DNA from: Escherichia phage REP1
Sequence record: OQ174500.1
DNA length: 64,000 nt
Direction: 5' to 3' (one strand)
Numbering within the stretch: position 1 is the stretch's first letter; every line of letters begins with the position of its first letter. Shown here piece after piece: positions 15,305 through 31,303 of the stretch. Below the pieces are notes generated by a model. The model was not told the origin of the DNA and made no database searches. It saw only the letters and a list, made by a program, of their open reading frames with translations. A program made the position numbers and the translations under genes.

Positions 15305-15335
15305 CTTTATTAAATTAGTTATAAAATTAAATCTC
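15305..15335 (+). promoter_or_regulatory. middle-promoter-like element upstream of gene 45
   Basis: GCTTTA box followed about 10 nt later by TATAAA. Confidence 0.35.
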
Positions 15336-15356
15336 ATTTGAATTGAAGGAAATTAC

Positions 15357-16043
15357 ATGAAACTGTCTAAAGATACTACTGCTCTGCTTAAAAATTTCGC
15401 TACTATTAACTCCGGTATTATGCTTAAATCCGGTCAATTTATTATGACTCGCGCAGTTAATGGTACAACTTATGCGGAAGCAAATATTTCTGACGTTATT
15501 GATTTTGATGTAGCAATTTACGATTTGAACGGTTTTCTCGGTATTCTGTCTCTAGTTAATGATGATGCAGAAATTTCCCAGTCAGAAGATGGAAATATTA
15601 AAATTGCTGATGCCCGTTCAACAATTTTTTGGCCAGCAGCCGATCCGAGTACAGTAGTTGCTCCTAATAAACCAATTCCATTCCCGGTAGCATCTGTTGT
15701 TACTGAAATTAAAGCTGAAGACCTTCAACAACTGTTGCGTGTATCTCGTGGTCTGCAAATTGATACAATTGCTATCACGGTAAAAGAAGGTAAAATCGTA
15801 ATTAACGGTTTTAATAAAGTAGAAGATTCTGCTCTGACCCGTGTTAAATATTCTTTGACTCTTGGTGATTATGATGGTGAAAATACATTTAATTTCATTA
15901 TCAATATGGCAAATATGAAAATGCAACCAGGAAATTATAAACTTCTGCTCTGGGCAAAAGGTAAACAAGGTGCTGCTAAATTTGAAGGTGAACATGCGAA
16001 TTATGTAGTAGCTCTTGAAGCTGATTCTACCCACGATTTTTAA
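15357..16043 (+). CDS. 45: sliding clamp gp45
   Basis: 228 aa; sequence matches T4 gp45. Confidence 0.95.
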   Translation: MKLSKDTTALLKNFATINSGIMLKSGQFIMTRAVNGTTYAEANISDVIDFDVAIYDLNGFLGILSLVNDDAEISQSEDGNIKIADARSTIFWPAADPSTVVAPNKPIPFPVASVVTEIKAEDLQQLLRVSRGLQIDTIAITVKEGKIVINGFNKVEDSALTRVKYSLTLGDYDGENTFNFIINMANMKMQPGNYKLLLWAKGKQGAAKFEGEHANYVVALEADSTHDF

Positions 16044-16046
16044 TAG

Positions 16047-16065
16047 AGGGCTTCGGCCCTTTATA
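16047..16065 (+). terminator. hairpin AGGGCTTCGGCCCT between genes 45 and 44
   Basis: UUCG-loop GC hairpin + TTTAT. Confidence 0.6.
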
Positions 16066-16094
16066 ATTTACACTAAAACTTGAATGAGGAAATT

Positions 16095-17054
16095 ATGATT
16101 ACCGTAAATGAAAAAGAACACATTCTTGAACAGAAATATCGTCCATCTACTATCGATGAATGTATTCTTCCCGCCTTTGATAAAGAAACCTTTAAATCTA
16201 TTACAAGTAAAGGTAAGATTCCACATATTATTCTTCATTCTCCTTCTCCAGGAACAGGTAAAACAACTGTAGCAAAAGCATTGTGTCATGATGTAAATGC
16301 TGATATGATGTTTGTAAATGGATCAGACTGTAAAATTGATTTCGTTCGTGGTCCTTTAACTAATTTTGCGAGTGCAGCTTCATTTGATGGTCGTCAAAAA
16401 GTAATCGTTATTGATGAATTTGACCGCTCAGGTTTAGCAGAATCTCAGCGACATCTTCGTTCCTTTATGGAAGCTTATAGTTCAAACTGTAGTATTATTA
16501 TTACTGCTAACAATATTGATGGTATTATTAAACCACTTCAGTCACGCTGCCGAGTTATTACGTTCGGTCAACCGACCGATGAAGATAAAATTGAAATGAT
16601 GAAGCAGATGATTCGTCGATTGACTGAAATCTGTAAACATGAAGGTATTGCTATAGCTGATATGAAAGTTGTAGCAGCTTTGGTTAAAAAGAATTTTCCT
16701 GATTTTCGTAAAACTATTGGCGAGCTCGATAGTTATTCATCTAAAGGTGTTTTGGATGCTGGTATTTTATCACTGGTTACTAACGATCGTGGTGCTATTG
16801 ATGATGTTCTTGAGTCTCTCAAAAATAAAGATGTTAAACAACTCAGAGCTTTAGCACCAAAATATGCAGCCGATTATTCGTGGTTCGTGGGTAAACTTGC
16901 CGAAGAAATCTATTCACGTGTAACTCCACAGAGTATTATTCGTATGTACGAAATTGTCGGCGAAAATAATCAGTATCATGGTATTGCAGCTAATACTGAA
17001 TTGCATTTAGCTTATCTTTTCATTCAATTAGCATGCGAAATGCAGTGGAAGTGA
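16095..17054 (+). CDS. 44: clamp loader large subunit gp44 (AAA+)
   Basis: 319 aa from ATG after GAGGAAA RBS (track ORF starts at upstream ATG 16080); Walker [18 protein letters not shown] motif. Confidence 0.95.
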
Positions 17055-17055
17055 T

Positions 17056-17619
17056 ATGAGCTTATTTGAAGATGATATTCAATTAAACGAGCATCAAGTT
17101 GCTTGGTATTCTAAAGATTGGACAGCTGTCCAATCTGCTGCTGATACTTTTAAAGAAAAAGCTGAAAATGAATTTTTTGAAATAATTGGAGCTATTAATA
17201 ATAAAACTAAATGCTCTATTGCTCAAAAAGATTATTCAAAATTCATGGTTGAAAATGCATTATCACAATTTCCAGAGTGCATGCCAGCTGTATATGCTAT
17301 GAATTTAATTGGATCAGGCTTAAGTGATGAAGCTCATTTTAATTATCTAATGGCTGCAGTTCCTCGTGGTAAAAGATATGGTAAATGGGCAAAACTAGTT
17401 GAAGATTCCACCGAAGTATTGATTATTAAGTTACTTGCTAAGCGGTATCAAGTTAATACAAATGATGCAATTAACTATAAATCAATTCTTACTAAAAATG
17501 GAAAACTACCTTTAGTATTAAAAGAACTTAAAGGATTAGTCACGGATGATTTTTTAAAAGAAGTGACTAAGAACGTAAAAGAACAGAAACAACTCAAAAA
17601 ACTAGCATTGGAATGGTAA
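17056..17619 (+). CDS. 62: clamp loader small subunit gp62
   Basis: 187 aa; matches T4 gp62. Confidence 0.9.
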
Positions 17620-17620
17620 A

Positions 17621-17989
17621 ATGATTGAAATTACTCTTAAAAAACCTGAAGATTTTCTGAAAGTAAAAGAAACTTTGACTCGTATGGGAATTGCTAATAA
17701 TAAAGATAAAGTTCTGTATCAGTCCTGTCATATTCTTCAGAAAAAAGGACTATACTATATCGTTCATTTTAAAGAAATGCTTCGTATGGATGGCCGTCAA
17801 GTTGAAATGACAGAAGAAGATGAAGTTCGTCGTGATTCGATTGCATGGCTGTTAGAAGATTGGGGACTGATTGAAATCGTTCCTGGACAAAGAACTTTTA
17901 TGAAAGATTTAACTAATAACTTCCGAGTTATTTCTTTTAAACAAAAACATGAATGGAAACTCGTTCCTAAATATACGATTGGTAATTAA
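17621..17989 (+). CDS. regA: translational repressor RegA
   Basis: 122 aa; matches T4 RegA. Confidence 0.93.
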   Translation: MIEITLKKPEDFLKVKETLTRMGIANNKDKVLYQSCHILQKKGLYYIVHFKEMLRMDGRQVEMTEEDEVRRDSIAWLLEDWGLIEIVPGQRTFMKDLTNNFRVISFKQKHEWKLVPKYTIGN

Positions 17990-17999
17990 GGTAAATTAT

Positions 18000-18224
18000 A
18001 TGACACAATCAGAGATTCAGTTTACCGAAGCTTTTCTAATATTCGAAAATCTAAAACAAACATATGGTCTGTCTTCTACCCAACTGGTTTTTGACCTCCC
18101 GGAAGATAAACAAAAAGAATTCCAACGATTAGTTTACCCACGCCAACGCGCATTTCATGCGATTATCAAAACCACAAATAAAGATGGCAAGTCCGTTATA
18201 TCGCGTCGTACAATAGAAATTTAA
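18000..18224 (+). CDS. hypothetical protein between regA and gene 43
   Basis: 74 aa from ATG (M18 of track ORF 17949..18224); followed by terminator. Confidence 0.4.
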   Translation: MTQSEIQFTEAFLIFENLKQTYGLSSTQLVFDLPEDKQKEFQRLVYPRQRAFHAIIKTTNKDGKSVISRRTIEI

Positions 18225-18227
18225 AGC

Positions 18228-18252
18228 AAAGGGGCTTCGGCCCCTTATTTGG
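18228..18252 (+). terminator. rho-independent terminator AAGGGGCTTCGGCCCCTT + TTT
   Basis: GC hairpin with UUCG loop. Confidence 0.7.
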
Positions 18253-18265
18253 AGTATAATATATC

Positions 18266-18300
18266 AAGAGCCTAATAACTCGGGCTATAAACTAAGGAAT
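18266..18300 (+). promoter_or_regulatory. gene 43 translational operator-like hairpin adjacent to the Shine-Dalgarno
   Basis: GAGCCUAAUAACUCGGGCU hairpin then AAGGAA and ATG; resembles the T4 gp43 autoregulatory operator. Confidence 0.5.
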
Positions 18301-18304
18301 ATCT

Positions 18305-21001
18305 ATGAAAGAATTTTATATCTCTATCGAAACAGTCGGAAATAACATTGTTGAACGTTATATTGATGAAAATGGAAAGGAACGTACTCGTGAAGTAGAA
18401 TATCTTCCAACTATGTTTAGACACTGTAAGGAAGAATCAAAATACAAAGACATTTACGGTAAAAACTGTGCTCCTCAAAAATTTCCATCAATGAAAGATG
18501 CCCGAGATTGGATGAAACGAATGGAAGACATCGGTCTCGAAGCTCTCGGTATGAACGATTTTAAACTCGCTTATATCAGTGATACATACGGTTCAGAAAT
18601 TGTTTATGACCGAAAATTTGTTCGTGTAGCTAACTGTGACATTGAGGTTACTGGTGATAAATTTCCTGACCCAATGAAAGCTGAATATGAAATTGATGCT
18701 ATCACTCATTACGATTCAATTGATGATCGTTTTTATGTTTTCGACCTTTTGAATTCAATGTATGGTTCAGTATCAAAATGGGATGCAAAGTTAGCTGCTA
18801 AGCTTGACTGTGAAGGTGGTGATGAAGTTCCTCAAGAAATTCTTGACCGAGTAATTTATATGCCATTCGATAATGAGCGTGATATGCTCATGGAATATAT
18901 CAATCTCTGGGAACAGAAACGACCTGCTATTTTTACTGGTTGGAATATTGAGGGGTTTGACGTTCCGTATATCATGAATCGCGTTAAAATGGTTCTCGGT
19001 GAACGTAGTATGAAACGCTTCTCTCCAATCGGTCGAGTAAAATCTAAACTAATTCAAAATATGTACGGTAGCAAAGAAATTTATTCTATTGATGGCGTAT
19101 CTATTCTTGATTATTTAGATTTGTACAAGAAATTCGCTTTTACTAATTTGCCGTCATTCTCTTTGGAATCAGTTGCTCAACATGAAACCAAAAAAGGTAA
19201 ATTACCATACGACGGTCCTATTAATAAACTTCGTGAGACTAATCATCAACGATACATTAGTTATAACATCATTGACGTAGAATCAGTTCAAGCAATTGAT
19301 AAAATTCGCGGGTTTATCGATCTAGTTTTAAGTATGTCTTATTACGCTAAAATGCCTTTTTCCGGTGTAATGAGTCCTATTAAAACTTGGGATGCTATTA
19401 TTTTTAACTCATTGAAAGGTGAACATAAGGTTATTCCTCAACAAGGTTCGCACGTTAAACAGAGTTTTCCGGGTGCATTCGTATTTGAACCTAAACCAAT
19501 TGCTCGTCGATATATTATGAGTTTTGACTTGACGTCTCTGTATCCGAGCATTATTCGTCAGGTTAACATTAGTCCTGAGACTATTCGTGGACAGTTTAAA
19601 GTTCATCCAATTCATGAATATATCGCAGGAACAGCTCCTAAACCGAGTGATGAATATTCTTGTTCTCCGAATGGATGGATGTATGATAAGCATCAAGAAG
19701 GTATCATTCCAAAGGAAATCGCTAAAGTATTTTTCCAGCGTAAAGATTGGAAAAAGAAAATGTTCGCTGAAGAAATGAATGCCGAAGCTATTAAAAAGAT
19801 TATTATGAAAGGCGCAGGGTCCTGTTCAACTAAACCAGAAGTTGAACGATATGTTAAGTTCAGTGATGATTTCTTAAATGAACTATCGAATTATACTGAA
19901 TCTGTTCTCAATAGTCTGATTGAGGAATGTGAAAAAGCGGCTACACTTGCTAATACAAATCAACTGAACCGTAAAATTCTCATTAACAGTCTTTATGGTG
20001 CTCTTGGTAATATTCATTTCCGTTACTATGATTTGCGAAATGCTACTGCTATCACAATTTTCGGCCAAGTTGGTATTCAGTGGATTGCTCGTAAAATTAA
20101 TGAATATCTGAATAAAGTATGCGGAACTAATGGTGAAGATTTCATCGCAGCAGGTGATACTGATTCGGTATATGTTTGTGTAGATAAAGTTATTGAAAAA
20201 GTTGGTCTTGACCGATTCAAAGAGCAGAACGATTTGGTTGAATTCATGAATCAGTTCGGTAAGAAAAAGATGGAACCTATGATTGATGTTGCATATCGTG
20301 AGTTATGTGATTATATGAATAACCGCGAGCATCTGATGCATATGGACCGTGAAGCTATTTCTTGTCCTCCACTTGGTTCAAAGGGCGTTGGCGGATTTTG
20401 GAAAGCGAAAAAGCGTTATGCTCTGAACGTTTATGATATGGAAGATAAGCGTTTTGCTGAACCACATCTAAAAATCATGGGTATGGAAACTCAGCAGAGT
20501 TCAACGCCTAAAGCGGTCCAAGAAGCTCTCGAAGAAAGTATTCGTCGTATTCTTCAGGAAGGTGAAGAGTCTGTCCAAGAATATTACAAAAACTTCGAGA
20601 AAGAATATCGTCAACTTGACTATAAAGTTATTGCTGAAGTAAAAACTGCGAACGATATAGCGAAATATGATGATAAAGGTTGGCCAGGATTTAAATGCCC
20701 GTTCCATATTCGTGGTGTGCTAACTTATCGTCGAGCTGTTAGTGGTCTGGGTGTAGCTCCAATTTTGGATGGAAATAAGGTAATGGTTCTTCCATTGCGT
20801 GAAGGAAATCCATTTGGTGACAAGTGCATTGCTTGGCCGTCGGGCACAGAACTTCCAAAAGAAATTCGTTCTGATGTACTGTCTTGGATTGACTACTCAA
20901 CTTTGTTCCAAAAATCGTTTGTTAAACCGCTTGCGGGTATGTGTGAATCGGCTGGTATGGACTATGAAGAAAAAGCTTCGTTAGACTTCCTGTTTGGCTG
21001 A
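18305..21001 (+). CDS. 43: DNA polymerase gp43 (family B)
   Basis: 898 aa; pol motifs DLTSLYPS and GDTDS; matches T4 gp43. Confidence 0.97.
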   Translation: MKEFYISIETVGNNIVERYIDENGKERTREVEYLPTMFRHCKEESKYKDIYGKNCAPQKFPSMKDARDWMKRMEDIGLEALGMNDFKLAYISDTYGSEIVYDRKFVRVANCDIEVTGDKFPDPMKAEYEIDAITHYDSIDDRFYVFDLLNSMYGSVSKWDAKLAAKLDCEGGDEVPQEILDRVIYMPFDNERDMLMEYINLWEQKRPAIFTGWNIEGFDVPYIMNRVKMVLGERSMKRFSPIGRVKSKLIQNMYGSKEIYSIDGVSILDYLDLYKKFAFTNLPSFSLESVAQHETKKGKLPYDGPINKLRETNHQRYISYNIIDVESVQAIDKIRGFIDLVLSMSYYAKMPFSGVMSPIKTWDAIIFNSLKGEHKVIPQQGSHVKQSFPGAFVFEPKPIARRYIMSFDLTSLYPSIIRQVNISPETIRGQFKVHPIHEYIAGTAPKPSDEYSCSPNGWMYDKHQEGIIPKEIAKVFFQRKDWKKKMFAEEMNAEAIKKIIMKGAGSCSTKPEVERYVKFSDDFLNELSNYTESVLNSLIEECEKAATLANTNQLNRKILINSLYGALGNIHFRYYDLRNATAITIFGQVGIQWIARKINEYLNKVCGTNGEDFIAAGDTDSVYVCVDKVIEKVGLDRFKEQNDLVEFMNQFGKKKMEPMIDVAYRELCDYMNNREHLMHMDREAISCPPLGSKGVGGFWKAKKRYALNVYDMEDKRFAEPHLKIMGMETQQSSTPKAVQEALEESIRRILQEGEESVQEYYKNFEKEYRQLDYKVIAEVKTANDIAKYDDKGWPGFKCPFHIRGVLTYRRAVSGLGVAPILDGNKVMVLPLREGNPFGDKCIAWPSGTELPKEIRSDVLSWIDYSTLFQKSFVKPLAGMCESAGMDYEEKASLDFLFG

Positions 21002-27690: not shown

Positions 27691-28323
27691 ATGATTTATT
27701 ATATGCACAAAAATCCACCGTTTAAATACGGTAAATTTCCTGATGCACAATGTTATAATATAACGCCTGATGAAAATAACCGTGGATATCTTATTGGCAC
27801 AATTTTTGTAATTGTTAAAGATAACGAAATCGTTGCCTGGGCAGATTTTAAAGGTACAACATATGATGTTAATCCGGTGCCTTTCACATATTACAATTTA
27901 ATGGATTTGGCATACGATTATAATTGGTTTAATCATGACACTTTGGCTCATATTGAAGGTGTAGGATTTGATATTTCATATTCGGAATACACTTTAAGCC
28001 CTATGAGTCGAGCCCATAAAGAACCTGAATATTTTTCATTTAGGAAACGTTTAAACTTTAAACGCAGCACAGAGTATGTCGGTGGAATCTTTGTTAAAGA
28101 TAATCGAATTATTCGTATTAATTATGCTTTGAGCGTTAGTCAAAAAGATATTGATGTTGATTTAGATTTCACTGAAAATAATATTAATAATATTGCTTCT
28201 GTGTATTTTGGTATCGATCACAAAATTGTAATATGTGGATATGAATTACCGTTTGAAGAACAGCCTAAAGTAAAAGTTTCTATTGACGATCAAATTTTTA
28301 ATGCTTTTATGAATAAAGGTTAA
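27691..28323 (+). CDS. hypothetical protein with internal domain repeat (61.2-like)
   Basis: 210 aa; two VKDNxI-containing repeats; C-terminal SIDDQIFNAFMNKG. Confidence 0.5.
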   Translation: MIYYMHKNPPFKYGKFPDAQCYNITPDENNRGYLIGTIFVIVKDNEIVAWADFKGTTYDVNPVPFTYYNLMDLAYDYNWFNHDTLAHIEGVGFDISYSEYTLSPMSRAHKEPEYFSFRKRLNFKRSTEYVGGIFVKDNRIIRINYALSVSQKDIDVDLDFTENNINNIASVYFGIDHKIVICGYELPFEEQPKVKVSIDDQIFNAFMNKG

Positions 28324-28324
28324 T

Positions 28325-28681
28325 ATGTATAGTTCTGAATTTTCATATTTAAAAATGGAAAAAATTTCATACGATTTTATAGATGAAAAGGTTTATTACA
28401 GTTTCCATGAACCGCGTTTTAATAGTGAGGTTGGGTTTATTGTAGTAAAAGACAATTTCATTTTAAAGATATATTCGGCATTAAAGGATTTTCACTACGA
28501 AAATATTAACCTAAAATTTGATAAAGAAAACGTTCGTAATTGTGCAGTAACAATTACAGGAAATAAAGGTACATGTGTTATGCTATCTGATGAAATTAAT
28601 GATTTGCTAAATGATGCAGAAAATATTACTGCGCCATCTATTGATGACCAAATTTTTAATGCTTTTATGAATAGAGGTTAA
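28325..28681 (+). CDS. hypothetical protein, paralog of preceding ORF
   Basis: 118 aa; VKDNFIL motif and near-identical C-terminal SIDDQIFNAFMNRG. Confidence 0.45.
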   Translation: MYSSEFSYLKMEKISYDFIDEKVYYSFHEPRFNSEVGFIVVKDNFILKIYSALKDFHYENINLKFDKENVRNCAVTITGNKGTCVMLSDEINDLLNDAENITAPSIDDQIFNAFMNRG

Positions 28682-28849: not shown

Positions 28850-29878
28850 ATGTCATCAATACCTTGGATTGATAATGAGTTTGCATACCGTGCATTAGCT
28901 CATCTACCTAAATTCACACAAGTAAATAATAGTTCAACTTTTAAATTACGGTTTAGATGTCCTGTTTGTGGAGATTCAAAAACCGATCAAAATAAAGCCC
29001 GTGGATGGTATTATGGCGATAATAATGAAGGAAATATTCATTGTTATAACTGTAATTATCATGCACCAATCGGAATATATTTAAAGGAGTTTGAACCTGA
29101 TTTATATCGTGAGTATATCTTTGAAATAAGAAAAGAAAAAGGTAAAAGTCGTCCAGTAGAAAAACCTAAAGAACTTCCTAAGCAACCTGAGAAGAAAATA
29201 ATTAAATCTCTTCCGTCATGTGTTAGATTAGATAAACTGGCGGAAGACCATCCAATTATAAAATATGTAAAAGCTCGTTGTATTCCAAAGGATAAATGGA
29301 AATATCTTTGGTTTACAACCGAATGGCCTAAATTAGTTAATAGCATAGCACCGGGAACATACAAAAAGGAAATTTCTGAGCCTCGTCTTGTTATTCCAAT
29401 TTATAATGCTAATGGAAAAGCTGAGTCTTTTCAAGGACGTGCATTAAAGAAAGATGCTCCACAAAAGTATATCACCATCAAAGCTTATCCTGAGGCAACA
29501 AAAATTTACGGTGTTGAACGAGTTAAAGATGGTGATGTATATGTTCTAGAAGGACCCATCGATTCACTTTTTATTGAAAATGGTATAGCCATTACTGGCG
29601 GTCAATTAGACCTAGAAGTTGTTCCATTTAAAGATAGACGAGTGTGGGTTTTAGATAATGAACCTCGTCACCCTGACACTATCAAACGAATGACTAAATT
29701 AGTTGATGCAGGAGAAAGGGTTATGTTTTGGGATAAATCTCCCTGGAAATCAAAAGATGTTAATGATATGATTAGAAAGGAAGGTGCAACCCCTGAACAA
29801 ATTATGGAATATATGAAAAATAATATTGCCCAGGGGTTGATGGCTAAAATGCGGTTATCTAAATATGCTAAGATTTAA
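28850..29878 (+). CDS. 61: DNA primase gp61
   Basis: 342 aa; N-terminal zinc ribbon CPVCGDS...CYNCNYH; matches T4 gp61. Confidence 0.93.
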   Translation: MSSIPWIDNEFAYRALAHLPKFTQVNNSSTFKLRFRCPVCGDSKTDQNKARGWYYGDNNEGNIHCYNCNYHAPIGIYLKEFEPDLYREYIFEIRKEKGKSRPVEKPKELPKQPEKKIIKSLPSCVRLDKLAEDHPIIKYVKARCIPKDKWKYLWFTTEWPKLVNSIAPGTYKKEISEPRLVIPIYNANGKAESFQGRALKKDAPQKYITIKAYPEATKIYGVERVKDGDVYVLEGPIDSLFIENGIAITGGQLDLEVVPFKDRRVWVLDNEPRHPDTIKRMTKLVDAGERVMFWDKSPWKSKDVNDMIRKEGATPEQIMEYMKNNIAQGLMAKMRLSKYAKI

Positions 29879-30075
29879 ATTAACCCAACTAAAGCAAATG
29901 CTAAATCTACAAATGTATCAAGAGTAACCACTGGAATATTAATACCATGTGCAATTGCAATAGGTGATAGAATAAAGTTCCAGAGTAAAATTCCTACCAT
30001 AGCAGAAATAGTAAAAGCTATACGTTTTTTATTACCTTTTATGGCATTAACAAGTGCCATTAATTTTTGTACCAT
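29875..30075 (-). CDS. hypothetical small membrane protein encoded antisense to the early genes
   Basis: 66 aa, two hydrophobic segments; strong SD (AAGGAGGA) 3 nt upstream of ATG on - strand; AATAAATA late-promoter-like box upstream. Confidence 0.4.
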   Translation of the reverse strand: MVQKLMALVNAIKGNKKRIAFTISAMVGILLWNFILSPIAIAHGINIPVVTLDTFVDLAFALVGLI

Positions 30076-30087
30076 ATATCCTCCTTA

Positions 30088-30118
30088 TTGCTTTATATTT
30101 ATTGTATAATTAATCTAC
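30088..30118 (+). promoter_or_regulatory. middle-promoter-like element upstream of gene 56
   Basis: GCTTTA box, then TATAAT about 12 nt downstream. Confidence 0.4.
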
Positions 30119-30144
30119 TAACCCATGAATTGAAAGGAAAAATA

Positions 30145-30663
30145 ATGGCTTACTTTAATGAATGTGCTCATTTGATCGAAGGTGTTGATAAAGCAAATCG
30201 TGCATATGCTGAGAATATTATGCACAATATTGACCCACTGCAGGTTATGCTTGATATGCAGCGGCATTTACAGATTCGTTTGGCTAATGATAAACCAGAA
30301 ACAAATCGTCATCCTGATTCACTTGAAACTGCAGGAGAAGTTCTTGCTTGGTTGCGAAACCAAGACGATTATATCGCAGATGAAACTCGCGAGCTATATA
30401 CTTCTCTTGGTGGTATGAGTAATGGTGAAAAAGAAGCTTCTGCCGTATGGAAACCTTGGAAGAAACGTTATTCTGAAATGCAATCCAAGAAAATTCAAGA
30501 CTTATCTCCTGAAGATCAGCTTGAAATTAAATTTGAACTGATTGACCAATTTCACTTTTTCATGAATAAATTTATTGCTCTTGGAATGTCAGCTGAAGAA
30601 ATCTTTAAACTTTATTACCTGAAAAATGCTGAAAACTTCGCTCGTCAAGACCGAGGTTATTAA
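30145..30663 (+). CDS. 56: dCTP pyrophosphatase gp56 (MazG-like)
   Basis: 172 aa from ATG after GAAAGGAAA RBS (track ORF begins upstream); MAYFNECAHLIEG... consistent with T4 gp56. Confidence 0.8.
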   Translation: MAYFNECAHLIEGVDKANRAYAENIMHNIDPLQVMLDMQRHLQIRLANDKPETNRHPDSLETAGEVLAWLRNQDDYIADETRELYTSLGGMSNGEKEASAVWKPWKKRYSEMQSKKIQDLSPEDQLEIKFELIDQFHFFMNKFIALGMSAEEIFKLYYLKNAENFARQDRGY

Positions 30664-30857
30664 TGGCTCGTTTAAATAAGCGTCAGCTTAAGAAAGCTCA
30701 TAAGAAACGTATTGACCAACTATTTAAAGATTATGACAAGGAGCTCGTGTGTGAGCTCTTAACTAATCAACTTCGTATGGTTGAAGTTATAGAAGGTCCT
30801 GACGAAATTTTTGTCAGTGAAGAAGCTTTAAAATTAATTATAGAGCATTCAAAATGA
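30663..30857 (+). CDS. hypothetical protein (soc.2-like position)
   Basis: 64-aa ORF. Confidence 0.5.
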   Translation: MARLNKRQLKKAHKKRIDQLFKDYDKELVCELLTNQLRMVEVIEGPDEIFVSEEALKLIIEHSK

Positions 30858-31027
30858 AAATATCCAAAGAAGAATTTATTAGACGTCAAAAAGCTTTAAT
30901 TAATTTACACGAGTGGTATGCTTATCAACTTAAAGTAGATAGCTCTAATATAAATGCTGTAATGGCTTTATATAAACAAATTCAAGATGAACACGAATTC
31001 CTGGCACAAGTTTTCATTGAAGACTGA
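30854..31027 (+). CDS. hypothetical protein (soc.1-like position)
   Basis: 57 aa; ATGA overlap; not in ORF track. Confidence 0.35.
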   Translation: MKISKEEFIRRQKALINLHEWYAYQLKVDSSNINAVMALYKQIQDEHEFLAQVFIED

Positions 31028-31035
31028 TATAAATA
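31028..31035 (+). promoter_or_regulatory. late promoter TATAAATA for soc
   Basis: Exact TATAAATA about 30 nt upstream of soc ATG with AAGGAG RBS between. Confidence 0.7.
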
Positions 31036-31066
31036 CACCTGTAATTAAACAATAAAGGAGTTTATT

Positions 31067-31303
31067 ATGGGTGGTTTCGTTAACATCAAGACCTTTACTC
31101 ATCCAGCAGGTGAAGGCAAAGAAGTTAAAGGTATGGAAGTTTCTGTAGCATTTGATGTATATTCAAATGAACACCGTATTGCAGATTCTCATTATCAAAT
31201 CTTTCCGTCAGAAAAAGCAGCTTATTCTGATGTAGTTTCCGATGCAGCAACTTGGAAAACTAAGAATGCTGCAATGTTTACACCTACAGAAATAGGTGGT
31301 TAA
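31067..31303 (+). CDS. soc: small outer capsid protein Soc
   Basis: 78 aa; VNIKTF...YQIFPSEKAAYS similar to T4 Soc; preceded by late promoter. Confidence 0.85.
   Translation: MGGFVNIKTFTHPAGEGKEVKGMEVSVAFDVYSNEHRIADSHYQIFPSEKAAYSDVVSDAATWKTKNAAMFTPTEIGG

Follow-up and report, generated by a model that had tools for sequence, protein, structure and literature searches.

Between gene 61 (DNA primase) and gene 56 (dCTPase) of Escherichia phage REP1 (sequence record OQ174500.1), a small open reading frame (ORF) runs on the minus strand, opposite to both neighbours, and it is this ORF that is analysed here. The stretch of DNA under study, referred to as the window, comprises 64,000 nucleotides (nt) of the REP1 record; it belongs to the genus Tequatrovirus and is, at this locus, 99% identical to phages MLF4, SHBML-50-1 and RB18. 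The ORF occupies positions 29875..30075 (stop codon included), starts with ATG and contains 66 codons; its product, MVQKLMALVNAIKGNKKRIAFTISAMVGILLWNFILSPIAIAHGINIPVVTLDTFVDLAFALVGLI, is identical to a hypothetical protein of Escherichia phage MLF4. Gene 61 (28850..29878, + strand) converges on the ORF, and 4 nt are common to both genes, with the stop codon of the ORF at 29875-29877 and that of the primase at 29876-29878. Gene 56 (30145..30663, + strand) diverges from the ORF and starts 70 nt away from it; both neighbours were assigned from the ORF list, family searches and the annotation of RB18. The gene order in the window is 61 - ORF - 56 - soc.2, and in RB18, the closest annotated relative, the ORF is the sole feature on its strand (one of 20 features in 6.6 kb). 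An earlier reading of the bare sequence, the first-pass annotation, had placed a minus-strand ORF of 66 amino acids (aa) between the two genes, with a 3' end overlapping the gene 61 stop, and both statements are borne out. The best overall explanation, to which a probability of about 0.75 is assigned, is that the ORF is a genuine late gene for a small membrane protein, orthologous to Dam.1, RB69ORF029w and RB32ORF030w. That it is a gene, that it is expressed late and that its product resides in a membrane is, taken jointly, highly probable.

The annotation of the ORF as the coding sequence of a 66-aa small membrane protein (Dam.1/RB69ORF029w/PHROG 2024 family) draws on the ORF list, on a match to PHROG 2024, on the ratio of nonsynonymous to synonymous substitution rates (dN/dS), and on its being the sole open frame. 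By itself, the length of the ORF is not significant in DNA with a GC content of 35%. Within Tequatrovirus, however, pairwise dN/dS values mostly lie between 0.05 and 0.3, and the 24 variable sites are distributed over codon positions 1, 2 and 3 as 8, 2 and 14. Between genera, at 54-62% nucleotide identity, dN/dS amounts to 0.16-0.45. When six genera (Tequatrovirus, Mosigvirus, Gaprivervirus, Kanagawavirus, Marfavirus and Jiaodavirus) are compared, the frame of the ORF alone is free of stop codons, and the other five frames are all interrupted. The signature of purifying selection, the sole open frame in six genera, and the retention in 18 loci of a promoter box and a GGAGG, described below, together take the ORF beyond what chance would produce. 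The distribution of the gene closely follows that of the primase: in tblastn searches, 502 phage records had the protein at an identity of at least 89%, compared to 501 records with a primase of at least 95% identity, and a query from the second subtype of the family detected the wider family in 945 records, compared to 953 with a primase of at least 60% identity. On this comparative evidence, the ORF is a genuine protein-coding gene under purifying selection, and by the record counts it is retained, in position and orientation alike, in essentially all enterobacterial Tevenvirinae.

The gene is already catalogued and is no oddity of the window. It matches PHROG 2024 ("unknown function") with E=1.4e-31 (residues 2-66 against profile positions 1-65 of 65), and Dam.1 of phage T4T (ADJ39749.1), RB69ORF029w, RB32ORF030w and VR7ORF033w, all in PHROG 2024, are its orthologues. 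Family membership is also apparent from the location of the ORF, which has gene 56 (or dam) on one side and converges on gene 61 on the other, and from the motif W-N-[FYL]-x3-P-x5-G-x3-P that follows a basic N-terminus. Hundreds of T4-like genomes carry the ORF as an annotated hypothetical protein. In T4 itself, it is intact at 17738-17938 (+ strand), where dam and gene 61 leave a gap of 309 bp, and it is 95-97% identical to the window ORF (two alignment tools); in the T4 reference records NC_000866 and AF158101, it stands without annotation (T4 locus L003, 3739-3939). In the protein collection, the exact T4 version of the protein is represented solely by raw assemblies, without an NCBI accession. 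Enterobacter phage IME523 likewise has an intact ORF that its RefSeq record leaves unannotated (locus L005, 1468-1677). The position and orientation, which had been regarded as unusual, therefore turn out to be the rule, as like placement is seen in essentially every Tequatrovirus including T4, and also in Mosigvirus, Gaprivervirus, Kanagawavirus, Marfavirus and Jiaodavirus.

Gaprivervirus has two tandem paralogues, one per subtype. In VR7, VR25 and VR26, the second of these (MGTLFYQIWKL..., of the Kanagawavirus/Marfavirus subtype) is unannotated and begins 9 nt past the first; its frame extends to 89 aa in VR7, reaching into the antisense of the primase gene (locus L004, 1701-1970), and comprises 66 aa in VR25 and VR26 (loci L017 and L018, 1701-1901). 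Among more distant T4-like phages, the primase gene is followed by no convergent ORF in Pseudotevenvirus GAP161, Aeromonas 44RR and one Acinetobacter phage. A profile search against 1.84 billion cluster representatives returned 16 family members at E<=1e-3, all of them 45-70 aa long, and no annotated relative, and neither tblastn with three distant members against the phage collection nor a single-protein scan of the genome collection gave a match. Outside the T4-like phages, in unrelated phages of which some are temperate, the members follow tail-tip or tail-fibre genes in late or tail modules. Their neighbours include a protein of 81-94 aa that combines a coiled coil with a transmembrane segment at its N-terminus, together with a gene for a gp49-like endonuclease VII or a SegE-like GIY-YIG protein, and at two of the distant loci, proteins of about 180 aa are also encoded that are homologous to each other (PHROG 1924, pairwise E=3e-8). 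This module recurs (loci L020, 3260-5082; L022, 3777-6213; L024, 5263-6153), and such a setting agrees with a putative late function of the family and does not say which. The 94-aa neighbour was considered as a conserved partner and dismissed: those in T4-like phages are MazG-like and unrelated to the transmembrane and coiled-coil proteins beside the distant members. A lysis cassette was also considered at the distant loci; the lone lysozyme nearby, at L022, is on the other strand, and no lysis-cassette argument can therefore be made.

Two signals precede the ORF on its own strand. A Shine-Dalgarno sequence, AAGGAGGA, is located at 30079..30086, 3 nt before the ATG, and a late-promoter box of the gp55 type, AATAAATA, with A at -13, is located at 30096..30103, 20 nt before the ATG. 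Both had been pointed out in the first-pass annotation, as a near-consensus Shine-Dalgarno and a late-promoter-like box, and its proposal to check the conservation of the ORF and its Shine-Dalgarno in related phages was answered positively, with a frame under selection and both signals preserved. In 18 out of 18 loci from six genera, ATAAATA is found 13-23 nt before the ATG and is followed by GGAGG. The box is kept though its flanks and the upstream neighbour (gene 56, dam or the MazG-like gene) differ among loci. The base in front of ATAAATA varies (A, G, C or T), and the perfect box, TATAAATA, occurs in IME523 and PhiKpNIH-6. A poorly conserved -13 position has been described for T4-like phages in general (Nolan et al., PMC1524935), and among 50 late sites of T4, 32 are perfect, nine carry A at -13, which is the commonest variant, and the rest mostly show other single deviations (PMC2988020). 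Late transcripts of T4 occur in either polarity (PMC2988020).

Across both strands of the window, ATAAATA occurs ten times, compared to 39.2 ± 5.8 occurrences expected from dinucleotide shuffles; this depletion, about four-fold, is consistent with selection against spurious late promoters. In five of the ten cases, a ribosome-binding site and an ATG follow within 18-31 nt; these boxes are those of gene 49 (endonuclease VII), soc, gene 36, the holin gene t and the ORF, and the 9-mer at the ORF, AATAAATAT, is identical to that of the t box. No sigma-70-like site was found upstream on the strand of the ORF. Late genes are recognized by a box of the TATAAATA type about 6 nt upstream of the transcript start and directly ahead of the gene, and this is the arrangement seen here. 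As the box occupies positions -13 to -6 (PMC1524935), the transcript is predicted to start near 30090, with a leader of about 15 nt. Taken together, the promoter comparisons make late expression of the ORF a well supported prediction.

On the other strand, the same few nucleotides belong to a divergent promoter of the middle type that precedes gene 56 (30087..30110, + strand), identified by alignment with RB18, the T4 dam-56 intergenic region, VR7 and JK36. It consists of the MotA-box-like ATTGCTTTA at 30087-30095, which we take to fit the MotA-box consensus as established for T4, and a TATAAT at 30105-30110. The spacer between these two elements holds the late box of the ORF on the opposite strand. 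The promoter aligns with that of the T4 dam-56 intergenic region, the transcript of which is named as the oriA primer in the T4 record. In T4, dam separates the late box from the gene 56 promoter, and it is because dam is absent from the window that the box lies inside the promoter spacer. The first-pass placement of the T4 oriA in this interval was thus roughly right, except that oriA belongs to gene 56 and not to the ORF: the T4 record puts it at the 5' end of that gene, and dam lies between oriA and the ORF.

Comparison of window positions 28850-31303 with T4 positions 15331-18963 reveals that the window lacks both dam (DNA adenine methylase) and the homing endonuclease gene segF, which in T4 flank gene 56, one on either side; in the window, soc.2 and a further small ORF separate gene 56 from soc. 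Compared with all of its close relatives, the window also carries a 2-bp deletion (TA) at 30088-30104, where RB18 and others read AATAAATATATAAAGC and the window reads AATAAATATAAAGC; accordingly, BLAST matches to the 601-bp query span 603 bp. The deletion shortens the distance from the late box to the ATG from 22 to 20 nt, and likewise the spacing between the box and the ribosome-binding site. On the other strand, it reduces the spacer between the MotA box and the TATAAT from 11 to 9 bp, and a spacer of 9 bp might weaken the gene 56 middle promoter. On the far side of gene 61, two adjacent + strand ORFs of 210 and 118 aa (27691-28323 and 28325-28681) both end in SIDDQIFNAFMN[KR]G and are labelled in RB18 as gp61.2 and as an ORF with 'some similarity to gp61.2'; the common end motif and these labels indicate a tandem partial duplication.

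The AlphaFold2 model of the protein (from a 14-sequence alignment) has a mean predicted local distance difference test score (pLDDT) of 80 and contains helices at residues 2-12, 16-42 and 52-63. The helix at 16-42 is of membrane length, that at 2-12 is a short N-terminal amphipathic helix, and that at 52-63 comprises twelve residues at the C-terminus. The first-pass description of a two-helix hydrophobic protein overstated the transmembrane content, since one helix of membrane length is modelled. The N-terminal flank carries a net charge of +5 and the 24-residue C-terminal tail one of -2, and the positive charge of the N flank equals or exceeds that of the C flank in all 17 family representatives. 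For RB69ORF029w, a transmembrane segment at residues 21-41 was predicted (Nolan et al., PMC1524935 supplement). From the modelled helices, the flank charges and the RB69ORF029w prediction, we infer that the protein crosses the inner membrane once, with a cytoplasmic N-terminus and a short amphipathic helix in the periplasm. Residues W32, N33, F34, P38, G44 and P48 are invariant in two family alignments (A1 and A2), the W and P are kept across the 17 representatives, residue 53 is a conserved acidic one, and conservation of the motif persists down to 25% identity. All of these conserved positions map to the outer half of the transmembrane helix or to the juxtamembrane loop that follows it. Such clustering points to a contact, inside the membrane or at its periplasmic face, with the protein itself or with a partner membrane protein, and not to an enzymatic role.

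Within the 3' end of gene 61, a long hairpin (29787..29839, - strand; fold z-score -4.1) is a candidate 3'-end structure for the putative late transcript; it lies 36-88 nt downstream of the ORF stop on the ORF-sense strand. It is an inverted repeat with a 14-bp stem, located in the primase codons for ATPEQ...AQGLM and stable on both strands. Among the phages examined, nine with a primase end of the T4 type have hairpins of -10 to -22 kcal/mol at the corresponding place; these comprise eight phages of the overlap type and VR7, in which the genes do not overlap (-18.2), and the weakest hairpin is that of PhiKpNIH-6 (-10.4). In Jiaodavirus, where the hairpin is missing (about -8), the ORF is immediately followed by a GC-rich terminator. 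The gene 61 hairpin did not emerge as a consensus structure from RNAalifold; some changes in its arms look compensatory (locus L026), and strand preference is mixed. On the + strand, a second, terminator-like hairpin with a T-run (ATGGCATTAACAAGTGCCAT TAATTTTTGT) is found at 30041-30070, about 165 nt past the gene 61 stop, where it overlaps codons 2-12 of the antisense ORF. Transcripts of gene 61 could potentially be terminated by it ahead of the gene 56 promoter. Its sequence is the same in T4 and not evident in VR7 or JK36, and the number of such hairpins is within chance for the scan.

The resulting model is that the gene is silent early in infection. After the onset of replication, RNA polymerase carrying gp55, gp33 and gp45 would transcribe leftwards on the minus strand from about 30090, producing a transcript of about 300 nt that enters the 3' end of gene 61 and probably ends at, or gains stability from, the hairpin at 29787-29839. 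Once inserted in the inner membrane, the product would keep its basic N-terminus (+5) on the cytoplasmic side, span the membrane with one helix (residues ~16-42) and expose a 24-residue acidic tail, with the short amphipathic helix, to the periplasm. Tentatively, it might serve there as an accessory factor of late envelope control, with a part in the timing or inhibition of lysis or in superinfection protection, though this is a suggestion we would put well short of even odds. Several observations weigh against the favoured explanation or against this role. The role was proposed solely from topology, timing and the position of the motif. Sequence searches of Pfam, NCBIfam, PADLOC and the PDB with the protein and 17 family representatives returned nothing above threshold, and no family, structure or neighbour was found that links the protein to lysis or exclusion; Foldseek comparison of the AlphaFold2 model with viral structures retrieved family members only. 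The T4 version of the promoter box, GATAAATA, is a rarer deviation, and a hidden-Markov-model search for late promoters in RB69 reported no site before ORF029w (Nolan et al., PMC1524935), which counts as a mild negative. The hairpin at 29787-29839 has no U-run, and its covariation is weak, with 27 out of 500 shuffles reaching the observed score by pair counting. The ORF was not found in the searchable literature on dam.1, ORF029w/ORF030w, T4 ribosome profiling and T4 start-site mapping. Nor is it among the genes quantified in a combined transcriptome and proteome study of T4 (PMC9697503), which covered RefSeq-annotated genes only and was therefore blind to it.

Among the alternatives, a chance ORF in an AT-rich intergenic spacer, without expression, would fit its unremarkable 66 codons and the silence of the T4 RefSeq and GenBank reference records. 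This explanation is contradicted by the record counts, the promoter box in 18 loci, the dN/dS values and the open-frame comparison, and it can be given almost no weight. A different possibility is that the RNA, or the act of transcription, is the main product, and that antisense transcription into gene 61 and occlusion of the gene 56/oriA promoter shut off primase, dCTPase and origin priming late in infection, with the peptide being secondary. All T4-like loci retain the convergence with gene 61, and in Tequatrovirus, Mosigvirus, Kanagawavirus and Marfavirus, the two genes overlap by 4 nt without an intergenic terminator; moreover, in dam-less phages the late box lies within the spacer of the gene 56 middle promoter, and the overlapped part of gene 61 holds the stable hairpin. 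However, the protein itself is under purifying selection, with its motifs kept down to 25% identity, and neither the overlap nor the promoter nesting is conserved: VR7 has a 206-bp gap containing the second paralogue, Jiaodavirus has a canonical terminator directly after the ORF, dam separates the box from the gene 56 promoter in T4, and distant members are found in late operons, co-directional with their neighbours. Given a constrained protein and arrangements that vary in this way, an antisense or occlusion role is very unlikely to be the main selected function; as an addition to the protein, it is possible.

If the protein is the selected product, it could still act otherwise than as an accessory factor. 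The idea of a lysis protein akin to a holin, antiholin or pinholin, by which late membrane lesions would be formed or gated, of the kind hinted at in the first-pass annotation, is compatible with a small protein that is predicted to be embedded in the membrane and whose promoter 9-mer is the same as that of holin t. One orthologue bears the automatic UniProt label 'Holin', three out of 17 family members give sub-threshold matches to GTA_holin_3TM (best E=0.03), and the conserved Asn within the transmembrane helix would favour oligomerisation. Yet the window has its own canonical T holin (Pfam E=1e-116), and apart from that automatic label, the proposed holin/antiholin-like activity finds no support: at least one transmembrane domain is indicated by the helix at 16-42 and by the hydropathy profile, but no endolysin adjoins the ORF in any T4-like locus (the neighbours being primase, dCTPase, dam or the MazG-like gene), the 24 C-terminal residues are hydrophobic with a net charge of -2 and do not resemble the typical charged, hydrophilic holin tail, and no Pfam or NCBIfam holin model is matched at threshold. 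We consider this idea unlikely. An inner-membrane protein that excludes superinfecting phages or blocks DNA entry, like T4 Imm or HK97 gp15, would agree with the small size, the predicted inner-membrane location and the conserved residues at the periplasmic face. At all T4-like loci seen to carry the ORF, spackle accompanies it at a distance of about 1 kb; this linkage may be mere synteny. Exclusion genes often sit near an integrase or a prophage end, and in temperate phages, the distant members follow tail or host-specificity genes near such sites. Against exclusion, the known exclusion genes of T4 are early, whereas the promoter of the ORF is of the late type only, and no Pfam exclusion family is related (none at E<=1 for the protein and none among the 17 representatives); exclusion is accordingly a doubtful candidate with some small chance of being correct. 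A type I toxin (Ldr and similar) was dismissed, with a lone sub-threshold Ldr_toxin match (E=0.1, one out of 17) and an opposite strand that is intergenic and contains no small-RNA gene.

Returning to the favoured explanation of a late membrane-protein gene, its retention in essentially every enterobacterial T4-like phage implies that the protein is very likely useful to the phage. Screens built on the T4 reference annotation, be it at the level of transcriptome, proteome or knock-down, miss the ORF, and the residual interest of the locus is that of a core late membrane protein left out of that annotation. The gene is near-universal in the T-even clade, predicted to be expressed late, and absent from the T4 reference annotation. 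It is speculative, and we would not expect it on present evidence, that it therefore forms an overlooked part of a classic T-even envelope phenomenon, such as lysis-inhibition signalling at the periplasmic face or late exclusion, and, in dam-less phages, of a switch in origin priming. If true, occupancy of the late promoter inside the gene 56/oriA promoter would help to switch off origin priming in dam-less phages.

Known systems provide several points of comparison. The closest is the Dam.1 family itself, from which nothing essential in the window differs: the T4/T4T protein is 97% identical, of equal length, and alike in position and orientation, and the window merely lacks dam and segF, so that the ORF abuts the gene 56 promoter. 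With the T4 late genes soc and 49, which are likewise placed amid early and middle genes, the ORF shares a promoter box of the gp55 TATAAATA type, a short leader, predicted in the case of the ORF, and a strong ribosome-binding site. However, soc and 49 are on the early-gene strand, whereas the ORF has the opposite polarity and converges on gene 61. Holin T, antiholin RI and the small lysis membrane proteins of T4 resemble the ORF product in late timing and inner-membrane location, both predicted in the case of the ORF, and the t box has the identical 9-mer; they differ from it in that the ORF product has no homology to them, no endolysin linkage, no large periplasmic domain and no charged C-terminal tail. 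Finally, T4 Imm and Sp are small envelope proteins like the ORF product, and sp is located about 1 kb from the ORF, but both genes are early and on the other strand, and their products have no sequence similarity to the ORF protein.

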